A DNA stretch of 64,000 nt, from positions 33,108,001 to 33,172,000 of the forward strand of contig OZ024759.1 of NCBI GenBank assembly GCA_964016885.1. Reading direction: 5' to 3'. Below are positions 3,851 to 57,362 of this stretch, in pieces. The DNA comes from Eledone cirrhosa (taxonomy: Eukaryota). Each line of letters begins with the position of its first letter. Position 1 is the first letter of the stretch. The notes beneath the pieces are model-generated. The model had not been told where the DNA came from, did no database searches, and was given only the letters and a program-made list of their open reading frames with translations. The translations under genes were made by a program, and so were the position numbers.

Positions 3851-4036
3851 GTATTTCCGTAGGCTGGATAAAGGAAAGCAGACTGCTCTATGTATGCTAC
3901 AGAGCTATTTAATTATGTAATAAACAACATAAGACAATTGATCAATCACCGATGAGCGATTTCAGACGTCTGTTGAGCTCGTCTGTCTTCGTGAAACCTT
4001 TGGTAAACGGAATAATTGTTTTATGTTGTTTATTAC

Positions 4037-5075: not shown

Positions 5076-5081
<6 letters not shown>

Positions 5082-5213
5082 GTACTCTGCTGAATAATGA
5101 TATAATTCCTCCCTCCCTCCCTCTCTTTGTGCATATATATATATATATATATATATGCACAAAGAGAGGGAGGGAGGGAGGAATTATATCATTATTCAGC
5201 AGAGTACTCGATA
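5076..5213. repeat. Perfect inverted repeat (about 58-bp arms) centred on (TA)n
   Basis: ATCGAGTACTCTGCTGAATAATG...TTTGTGC-(AT)n-GCACAAA...CATTATTCAGCAGAGTACTCGAT. Confidence 0.9.
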
Positions 5214-5346
5214 CTTACGATAGGACAGAACAACATTCCTTATATGGTACAATAAATTCTGTCACATGTCAGAATTTGTGGTACCATATAAGAAGGAATC
5301 GGATAATATTCATCCACGCTCAGACGCGAGTCTACATGTTGAAACA

Positions 5347-5432
5347 TATCTGAGGAGCTTCCCATTCCAGAGTCAGGTTCTATCCTTAAAAGATCGTTTC
5401 TCGAGCTGATCGACAGTGAAACATATGTAATG
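5347..5432 (+). ncRNA. Hammerhead ribozyme, type I, with extended stem II
   Basis: UAU-CUGAGGA (5350-5356)-GCU...AGU-GAAAC (5418)-AUAU-GUA-AUG. Stem III has a palindromic loop and the cleavage triplet is GUA. Confidence 0.65.
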
Positions 5433-5483
5433 AAATATGTATATGAGGTAACACTGATTCTTTGTTCCGTTAAGTATTATTAT

Positions 5484-5526
<43 letters not shown>

Positions 5527-5528
<2 letters not shown>

Positions 5529-5633
5529 CCCGCCGAGGTTTACTTTGCCTTTCATCCTTACGGGGTCGATAAAATAAAGTACCAGTAATGCACTGAGTAA
5601 TTTGCTGGCCTTGTGCCAAAAGTAGAAACAATT
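5527..5633 (+). mobile_element. SINE family 1 fragment between TA tracts
   Basis: SINE core and tail. Confidence 0.85.
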
Positions 5634-5635
5634 AT

Positions 5636-5683
<48 letters not shown>

Positions 5684-5691
<8 letters not shown>

Positions 5692-5790
5692 CAGGAGCGA
5701 ACACGAATCCAAACCAAACAGTGAGTGTGTTTTATTATTATTTCTGGTAATATTATAACAATATGACCCTCCCCAAATATAACAATATAT
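5684..5790 (+). mobile_element. TA-embedded element fragment homologous to the arm of the 57558-57839 palindrome
   Basis: CCAAACAGTGAGTGTG...ATGACCCTCCCCAAATATAACAATAT is shared with 57760-57839. Confidence 0.7.
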
Positions 5791-5811
5791 ATATATCATA
5801 TATATATATAT

Positions 5812-5870
5812 GAAAAGATTCAGGACCCCGACGGCTGAGCTCTGGCCGTTTCGGCAGCTTGATCCGAACT
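5812..5870 (-). mobile_element. Fragment of the 53.0/53.5-kb hairpin family (3' half of a hammerhead)
   Basis: Reverse complement reads GAAACGGCCAGAGCTCAGCCGTCGGGGTCC. Confidence 0.6.
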
Positions 5871-5900
5871 CATATCTATGTATCTATCTATATATATATA

Positions 5901-6207
5901 GTTAAATAAGATAACAAGGACGATTGGTTACTCCTTCATTAGGTTAATTAGTTGGTGACGCGCGTTTCGCCACTGACGAGCCGCGGTTTACAGAGTCAGG
6001 TCAGATCGATACAGATCGAACCTTGAGCTGATCAGTGGCGAATCCGCGCGTCACCAACCAATAAACGTAATGAATGAGTAGCCAAACGTCCTTGTTATCT
6101 TATTTCACTATAATACACTCTGTCTAGCTCTACACCTCGACACTGAAGTGAACCTAAACATCGAGTGCTCACCCGGGTGAACCTACAGTAATCCCAAGTT
6201 ACACCCT

Positions 6208-6209
<2 letters not shown>
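5901..6209 (+). mobile_element. (TA)n-flanked fold-back element with hammerhead core (Penelope-like pLTR derivative)
   Basis: Arms at about 5901-5976 and 6032-6109. CUGACGA (5973)-GCCGC...GUGGC-GAA..GCGC-GUC (6052); the GAAAC is damaged in this arm but intact in the inverted arm. AATAAA at 6060 and a tail with ATCGAGTGCT at 6160. Second copy at 19966-20172. Confidence 0.75.
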
Positions 6210-6254
<45 letters not shown>

Positions 6255-6255
<1 letters not shown>

Positions 6256-6535
6256 GATATCACAGAAAACAGAGAATCAGTGTTGCGACGAAAGTAATTT
6301 ATTGCTTCGTAGAATCGAGACGTATCCGAGGACCGCTGATTTCAGAGTCAGGTTTGATCACCACATCGATCGTGCCTCGAGCTGGTCGCCCGAGAAACAA
6401 TTGTAATATGTCCAATAAATTCCTTTCGTCGCAACACTGATTCTCATTTTTCTGTGATATCATACTCTGCTCTACGAGGGCATCGAGTGTTCATACGGCT
6501 TACCGCATACGGACGCTTTAAGCATCCAACGCCAA
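6255..6535 (+). mobile_element. (TA)n-flanked fold-back element with long-stem-II hammerhead-like core
   Basis: Arms at about 6255-6304 and 6413-6462. UAU-CCGAGGA (6326)...GAAAC (6394)-AAUU-GUA-AUA, AATAAA at 6414, ATCGAGTGTT at 6482. Confidence 0.7.
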
Positions 6536-6846
6536 TTATATATATATATAGGTAGGTAATCTAAACGTAGAAATACACATAAACACACTGGAATGCTATA
6601 CATTATAGTGTGGAAAATCAACTAAAATACTCAATGTTAGAGACAGTGTGACTGCCCAATGCTATCCGACTATAGGGATATCATCTTACTTTTCTCAGCT
6701 ATCATTTGTAGCTAAAGTCAGTTGTTGCACTTATTTTATGCGTTTCGGATTCTTACATCTTCGAAAGCACTTTCAAATTATCTACCGCTCTGATGATTTC
6801 TATAGATCGTTGAATATATACATATATACATACATATATACATACA

Positions 6847-15699: not shown

Positions 15700-15818
15700 G
15701 CATGCGCGTTCATACGGATGTCCTTCCTGTTCCGTATAATCATGTCCATTACAAGCTGAAGAGCCGCTAAGGTGAAACAATTGTTCTCGGTAGGGTGAAC
15801 TAACTGTTGTGTTACCAC

Positions 15819-57260: not shown

Positions 57261-57297
57261 CGAGAACATTGTTTCGCCTTAGCGGATCCTCAGCCCG
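57261..57297 (-). ncRNA. Hammerhead ribozyme (minus arm)
   Basis: CGGG-CUGAGGA-UCC-GCUAA-GGC-GAAAC-AAU-GUU-CUCG. Confidence 0.72.
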
Positions 57298-57324: not shown

Positions 57325-57362
57325 CGAGCTGAAGATACGCTAGGGTGAAACAATTGTTCTCG
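57325..57362 (+). ncRNA. Hammerhead ribozyme (plus arm)
   Basis: CGAG-CUGAAGA-UAC-GCUAGG-GU-GAAAC-AAUU-GUU-CUCG. Confidence 0.72.

Follow-up and report, generated by a model that had tools for sequence, protein, structure and literature searches.

The role of hammerhead ribozymes in Penelope-like elements (PLEs) is described as unclear (PMC8557442), and the recognition of RNA by the PLE protein has been mapped only roughly (PMC11167929). For the Poseidon element of anoles, the protein is described as needing an RNA region that begins at hammerhead stem II and as assisting cleavage; the ribozyme is inactive without the protein, insertion does not need cleavage, two start sites flank the tail, and dimerization is predicted (PMC11167929). 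A dimer model has also been put forward for PLE hammerheads (PMC4209133, PMC6765202), and the stem III palindromes described here agree with it. The Hydra clade of PLEs is defined by its RWK/R, DKT, CxCX5C, CxxC, and CxH motifs (PMC8557442).

Here, we describe hammerheads in the (TA)n-rich, 3.0-Gb genome of Eledone cirrhosa, three of which lie close together within an analysed stretch of 64,000 nt (the window). Their stem II is predicted to form a hairpin with an internal loop (GAGUC opposite GAGC) that we hold, with high confidence, to be a conserved functional RNA structure.

The window copies and their genomic families

The three copies are, as judged from their sequences, decayed 3′ ends from three related families of one PLE lineage. 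Copy 1 (5270–5486, + strand, boundaries approximate) is a 5′-truncated 3′ end of family F6 in its short form without tail; it is identical to the F6 consensus at 152 of 166 aligned bases, and its homologues are loci L032–L060. A (TA)n run begins at 5487 on its 3′ side, and a short inverted piece lies at about 5235–5262. The type I hammerhead of this copy (5350–5429, +) consists of CUGAGGA (5350–5356), a stem II of 61 nt (5357–5417), GAAA (5418–5421), and the stem III palindrome ACAUAUGU (5421–5428), with cleavage predicted 3′ of A5429; a 7-nt deletion takes out most of the 3′ strand of stem I. The module within stem II (5368–5408, +) has a CAG/CUG helix, the internal loop GAGUC (5370–5374)/GAGC (5403–5406), and a decayed apical hairpin.

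Copy 2 (5973–6209, +; (TA)n starts at 6210) is the 3′ end, with tail, of family F13, to whose consensus it is identical at 125 of 139 aligned bases; L019 and L124 are intact relatives. It has CUGACGA at 5973–5979, a stem II of 60 nt at 5980–6039, and AATAAA at 6060–6065; its core is mutated, with GAAU (6040–6043, then C) instead of GAAA. Its module (5991–6030, +) contains GAGUC (5993–5997) and GAGC (6025–6028). Upstream lies an inversion of its own 3′ part (5897–5972, −), a PLE 5′ inversion that takes the place of the 5′ strand of stem I; the inverted arms (5897–5964/6045–6112) are 68 nt long and 90% complementary. Copy 3 (6305–6537, +, with the optional tail at about 6461–6537) is the corresponding end of family F8 (158 of 167 aligned bases identical to the consensus) and is likewise preceded by an inversion of its own 3′ part (6253–6304, −; arms 6253–6304/6413–6464, 52 nt, 92% complementary). 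Stem I (6320–6325/6406–6411), CCGAGGA (6326–6332), a stem II of 61 nt (6333–6393), GAAA (6394–6397), and the palindrome ACAAUUGU (6397–6404) make up its hammerhead, with predicted cleavage 3′ of A6405 and AATAAA at 6414–6419; its damage consists of the CCGA core and a shortened stem II base. The module (6343–6384, +) comprises CAG/CUG, GAGUC (6345–6349)/GAGC (6379–6382), AGG/CCU with a bulged C, and a GAUC(G) apical hairpin, and this fold is its minimum free energy (MFE) structure, with an ensemble frequency of 0.67.

A sequence-only reading of the window had placed an 11-mer, CAGAGTCAGGT, at 5368, 5991, and 6343 as the start of a longer pattern; the 11-mer is there exactly, with no other exact occurrence in the window, and the remainder of the pattern is present in all three copies. 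The interval of about 60 nt given between CUGANGA and GAAA holds as a length (61, 60, and 61 nt), but the cores do not, since copy 3 has CCGAGGA and copy 2 has GAAU. Similarly, the proposed CAG/CUG, UC/GA, and AGG/CCU pairing is the MFE structure in copy 3 and nearly so in copy 2, but not in copy 1. The larger picture, of three different hammerheads with largely different arms and tails onto which a module had been grafted, is not supported: in copies 2 and 3, each long arm is the element's own 3′ end in inverted orientation and no arm of the ribozyme, copies 1 and 3 both contain AACACTGATTCT, one layout is common to all families, and the copies are homologous members of one PLE lineage that share the long stem II by descent.

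Genome-wide, the collection of module matches that the same reading had proposed yielded 2,988 exact matches to the 5′ half of its pattern and 4,770 to CAGAGTCAGG-N20-45-GAGCTG, with none for either reversed-pattern control; copy numbers are lower bounds, as they derive from exact patterns. CTGANGA stands 8–30 nt upstream in 2,713 module matches (a few counted twice), and among the remainder there are plausibly subfamilies with a CCGA core, copies with mutations, and copies interrupted by inversions, cases of these kinds having been observed. A search keyed on the hammerhead, with no module term, initially returned 14,051 matches, many in a LINE coding region, and after tightening 2,861, against 14 for its control. 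Among the first 30 loci of this search, 27 were scored (three overlapped another) against a model derived from 41 copies, whose training set included some of these loci, and 26 reached at least 51 bits. No Rfam family matched the window at the gathering threshold and no hammerhead family matched 5250–6560 at E values up to 10, where the only matches were weak ones on TA repeats and hairpins; given the long insertion, no hammerhead match is expected. Short-stem descriptors and Rfam thus overlook thousands of hammerheads in this genome.

For closer comparison, a set of 123 hammerhead-like copies, many of them from loci selected by eye or through a pattern, was put through a loose filter for the module, which 110 passed; families were defined afterwards, and consensuses were made for the ten families with three or more copies each. 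By eye, the 13 copies filtered out are six decayed members, four of a short-stem family, one other long-stem hammerhead, and two spurious cases. Scans of metagenomes and viruses gave at least 124 pattern matches in at least 124 loci; among the matches listed, four had GAAA in range and none formed a hammerhead by eye. In contigs labelled as a second organism, pieces of the element span both strands of the loop, a weak signal from four contigs only, at depths of 2.5–4.5.

An inverted copy lies upstream in 34 of the 110 module-bearing copies, and (TA)4 lies within 30–200 nt downstream in 82 (a raw count, from a TA-rich genome). The families have two 3′ ends, one short and one longer by the tail. 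Truncation, inversions, optional tail, and (TA)n together are the insertion anatomy of PLEs, as described for PLE copies (PMC8557442), in which an optional tail is attributed to two reverse-transcription start sites (PMC11167929). In the tails of F2, F6, F7, F8, F10, and F13 (window 6478–6500), GCAT(C/A/T)GAGTGCT recurs and, by eye, can pair with an upstream ACTCTGCTC, which would make a further conserved hairpin close to where reverse transcription is inferred to start.

The parent element, placed by motifs read by eye, appears to be a Hydra-type PLE. In a walk upstream from F8, the family of copy 3, the module was found downstream in 25 of 30 upstream-anchored loci, and the family is colinear with a Hydra-type open reading frame (ORF) in L500, L501, L502, and L505; L500, L501, and L505 are colinear over 3.2–3.3 kb at about 90% identity. 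The broken ORF of L501 shows, by eye, RWR, DKT, the core of a reverse transcriptase (RT), the linker CxCX5C, an endonuclease of GIY-YIG type, and CxH; CxxC was seen in L504 and other loci, the absence of CCHH was judged by eye, and a Pfam search with four broken ORF pieces gave no match. In L501, the element measures about 4.5–5 kb, with a 3′ untranslated region (UTR) near 1.8 kb and an ORF that starts roughly 190 nt past the ribozyme; in this locus only, the tail continues into the 5′ leader of the ORF (pseudo-LTR).

Three further lineages beyond F8 link the endonuclease (EN) to the module hammerhead. Among 40 Hydra-type EN loci, hand-chosen from 150 matches at 62–83% identity, the module hammerhead lies 1.1–2.9 kb downstream in eight, none passing the filter was found in the other 32, and a short-stem hammerhead candidate is present at only one, 3.1 kb away. 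Within each of the pairs L569/L572, L577/L579, and L540/L547, the 3′ UTR aligns from the endonuclease through the ribozyme, and between L500 and L569 nothing aligns outside the endonuclease and the region around the ribozyme. For F6 (copy 1), an upstream walk of about 0.9 kb met an embedded SINE and a microsatellite but no ORF, and F13 (copy 2), which was not walked, likewise yielded none. The SINE is embedded in the F6 body upstream of the hammerhead (L043, L047, L361), is common to many copies, and also stands alone at about 5527–5625 of the window.

Other candidate partners, two abundant PLE clades among them, were rejected. PLE clade A stands upstream of F6 in L361 and L358 but has its own 3′ end, and none of its 46 loci (30 of them with only 1.5 kb of downstream sequence) has the module; none of 30 clade B loci has it within 1.5 kb; and the RT piece in L023–L025 belongs to a separate element with its own minimal hammerhead. 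In L401, L404, and L361, the end of a Neptune-like PLE clade, about 850 nt past the endonuclease, is marked by a degenerate motif that resembles a hammerhead, with UUGAAAA or UUGACAA replacing CUGANGA, followed by GAAACCGGU and an A-rich tract.

Further hammerheads and repeats were seen alongside. Minimal type I hammerheads without the module lie in the window at 15756–15785 (+), 57329–57358 (+), and about 57264–57293 (−); they have a short stem II and the same ACAATTGT-type stem III as the module copies, and belong to another PLE family. At 3949–4005, CCGATGA...GAAAC encloses a 40-nt hairpin and adjoins TA runs; it does not match the module model and is possibly a decayed hammerhead of another family. 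A perfect 69-bp palindrome without spacer, with a TA run at its centre, occupies 5076–5213. Elsewhere, a short-stem hammerhead family (L109, L153, L154, L155) has a second conserved CTGAAGA in a hairpin of its own about 38 nt upstream, and long-stem-II hammerhead-like motifs without GAGUC/GAGC occur at L130:1501–1570 (+) and L190:1480–1556 (−), the one in L190 perhaps with an AG/G loop closed by other pairs.

Conservation and structure of the stem II arm

All ten family consensuses have CUGANGA and GAAA cores with an NUH site, a stem II of 57–62 nt, and both GAGTC and GAGC, the latter exactly 11 nt from GAAA in every case; the spacing between GAGTC and GAGC ranges from 25 to 29 nt. The value of 0.80 in a GAGUC column is an artefact of one row misaligned by a base. 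Outside the loop, identity is 0.29 in the upstream segment and 0.41 in the downstream one; within the hammerhead it is 0.50–0.56 for stem I, 0.52–0.54 for the stem II base, and 0.43 for the apical arm. Coding constraint was rejected as the cause, since module lengths differ by non-multiples of three.

The MFE structure of each of the ten consensuses (z-scores −0.6 to −3.5) contains a G-C pair, an AG/G loop, and then U-A and C-G pairs. The pair adjacent to the loop is A-U in seven families and G-C in three; the second pair out is C-G in five, U-A in three, and unpaired in two, so that CAG/CUG gives way to UGG/CCA between families. The loop's own pairs are invariant, and as they never vary among the ten families they show no covariation. 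Six families have GAUC/GAUC as their apical helix; in others, a different sequence pairs there (e.g. CAUA/UAUG).

Across 41 copies, 81% of pairing cells can pair, compared with 70% after shuffling and 28–38% in slid registers; for 105 matches aligned with the covariance model, an alignment itself fitted to the structure, the figures are 79%, 66%, and 30–36%. Pair counts exceed those of all 500 shuffles and all slid registers, controls that ignore relatedness. Double-sided changes occur in stems I, II, and III. RNAalifold returned no consensus structure for the 41 decayed copies and, for 11 copies taken one per family, recovered the arm helix unprompted, with double changes at 8 of 16 pairs. 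The stem III 8-mers are palindromic or nearly so and pair fully as dimers when cofolded. The exception among these lineages is the EN-linked pair L577 and L579, which has GAAUC and in which the module is the MFE structure in only one of three copies.

An invariant non-canonical loop flanked by helices that covary usually points to a ligand or tertiary site, and a sequence-fixed, purine-rich 2 × 1 loop between covarying helices suggests recognition of shape. The conserved sub-domain of the sequence-only reading is upheld in being better conserved than its flanks between families, but its core amounts to 9–13 nt and not to the whole 45-nt pattern; GAUC/GAUC, listed there as a conserved element, is not invariant across the lineage, where only GAGUC/GAGC and GG/CC are nearly so. 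That reading had also named three grounds for doubting the module (flank-like conservation, no covariation, and non-hammerhead context), and none was found: conservation of the sub-domain exceeds that of the flanks, there is covariation in its helices, and hammerhead cores accompany it.

Could the families be alike through relatedness alone, the module having no function of its own? As that explanation expects, homology extends to all copies, and individual ones decay at the background rate; against it, alignment between lineages fails over the 3′ UTRs (1.1–1.8 kb) and endonuclease identity is down to 62–83%, yet the 9 nt are retained and the helices show covariation. We therefore regard it as largely refuted and give it very little credence.

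Only slightly less improbable is a role of the conserved letters at the DNA level, where they would serve as an internal promoter within the pseudo-LTR or as a recognition site for the endonuclease. Promoters do reside in PLE pseudo-LTRs (PMC6765202), the L501 tail runs on into the ORF leader, and one family has a B-box-like GTTCGATCC; however, that pattern is present in one of ten families, the distance between GAGTC and GAGC varies (25 to 29 nt), and neighbouring positions change as compensatory pairs.

Known motifs were also considered and rejected. The B box consensus of Pol III promoters is GTTCRANNC, and a tRNA-derived SINE was dismissed on the same single-family occurrence. SECIS elements and kink-turns have AUGA and tandem sheared GA/GA beside a 3-nt bulge; here, AUGA is absent from the 5′ strand in all ten consensuses and the loop is AG opposite G. 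A likeness to SRP domain IV was rejected as well.

Level of selection and proposed function

Single copies keep the loop no better than their flanks. In upstream-anchored F8 copies (28 of 30 rows), GAGUC and GAGC together show 7 non-CpG substitutions in 216, not below the flanks (Fisher p = 1.0); in upstream-anchored F6 copies (17 of 30 rows), the count is 6 in 120, again not below the flanks (Fisher p = 0.58). The catalytic core decays at the loop's rate in single copies. With single copies decaying neutrally, the conservation does not point to a host function, and the constraint acts on the source elements during retrotransposition rather than on genomic copies.

Our preferred reading, to which we assign about an even chance, is that the GAGUC/GAGC loop is a putative docking site for the element's own RT-endonuclease. 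On this proposal, the transcript would fold into the ribozyme core and a 57–62-nt hairpin of about 9 bp, a 2–3-nt bulge, 3 bp, the AG/G loop, 2 + 3 bp, and a variable apical hairpin. The element's protein would read the non-Watson–Crick loop and so mark the RNA as template; reverse transcription would begin 3′ of the ribozyme, at either of two sites that would account for the two 3′ ends, and would usually halt soon after the hairpin, so that short copies arise in their thousands. By way of the palindromic stem III, two hammerhead units would be able to dimerize, and the window copies would be inert by-products.

The chief competitor is a tertiary RNA–RNA contact in place of the loop I–loop II interaction, with the loop docking on stem I, the AAUAAA tract, or a dimer partner and thereby speeding or gating cleavage; we put its chances at roughly one in four. 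The loop's place on stem II, which is 11 nt from GAAA without exception across the ten families, fits this as well as it fits protein docking; the core is fully conserved, AATAAA or ATTAAA lies 6–14 nt past the cleavage site in all ten consensuses (ATTAAA in F6; window 6060–6065 and 6414–6419 for the other two copies), and natural hammerheads need helix I–II contacts (PMC4209133). Yet the apparent geometry sets the loop about 12 bp from the core with a stem I of only 3–6 bp, upstream identity is 0.29, and PLE hammerheads are usually without tertiary interactions (PMC6155905). No conserved RNA partner for the loop was seen upstream of the ribozyme, and no apical-loop pseudoknot pairs at a common position across families. 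Protein docking is favoured over a tertiary contact on these grounds—no conserved partner, no pseudoknot, and the distance from loop to core—together with the RNA need of the Poseidon protein, with the caveat that the anole element comes from another clade.

We consider it rather unlikely that the arm instead binds a host protein or controls folding, for example by holding the ribozyme off or by coupling it to 3′ end formation at a poly(A)-like signal. AATAAA or ATTAAA, the pattern expected of a putative poly(A) signal, is found no more than 35 nt from the cleavage site in 82 of 110 copies, cleavage would sever it from the upstream RNA, and the anole ribozyme is inactive without protein (PMC11167929).

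Docking by the element's own protein could be taken one step further: as a bolder and correspondingly doubtful proposal, the loop may be a cis-acting recognition signal by which the telomerase-related PLE RT selects its RNA, with the hammerhead as a scaffold that would present two loops to a protein dimer via stem III. If so, PLE hammerheads would have a role beyond cleavage, and a PLE enzyme would have in the arm a portable RNA tag. The clade as a whole does not need the arm, since Hydra elements in the literature function with short stems II. A non-canonical loop of 9 nt that keeps its distance from the core amid drifting surroundings offers a precise target for mutagenesis, binding, and structural work.

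Comparison with known systems

Hydra-clade hammerheads (Craig et al. 2021, PMC8557442) resemble those described here in being of type I, with a short stem I, a palindromic stem III, and commonly a mismatch at the base of stem II, and in lying near the 3′ end of an element with RT plus, at the C terminus, a GIY-YIG endonuclease that targets (TA)n. They differ in stem II, which in all 26 Hydra-clade rows of File S2 of that study (including the octopus Hydra-1_oBim) has 3–7 bp and a loop of 3–10 nt, against 57–62 nt here, and in element length, usually below 3 kb as against about 4.5–5 kb for L501. By eye, F10 has a stem II base (GATGTCGA/TCGATATT) similar to the one in the short-stem Hydra-1_oBim (PMC8557442), which hints that the arm arose through an extension of loop II.

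The minimal PLE hammerheads of Cervera and de la Pena (2014, PMC4209133) share with the present ones their dispersed short copies, many covarying families, inverted pairs, and a dimer-type helix III, but have a helix II of at most 6–8 bp and no conserved sub-domain in the accessible account. Poseidon of Anolis (Frangieh et al. 2024, PMC11167929) likewise has a hammerhead, an optional tail, two 3′ ends, a pseudo-LTR that runs into the ORF, and AT-rich targets; it belongs to the other clade mentioned above, its ORF begins at stem II, and the accessible part of the account describes no long stem II. Non-LTR retrozymes (PMC7229834; bioRxiv 10.64898/2026.07.22.740005) have type I hammerheads, short repeats, and a PLE origin in common with these copies and consist of tandem repeats of 170–400 nt that make circles; that class was rejected, since the copies here are dispersed or in inverted pairs, 5′-truncated, and in some cases ORF-linked, and are not tandem.

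In the accessible parts of PMC8557442, PMC4209133, PMC10085705, PMC7229834, PMC6155905, and bioRxiv 10.64898/2026.07.22.740005, no description of the extended arm was found; the elements themselves, without the arm structure, may already be catalogued in Repbase. Hammerheads of Hydra-clade PLEs are already known, and the long-stem-II form, as predicted from sequence, appears to add a structural form to the hammerheads of Hydra-type PLEs.
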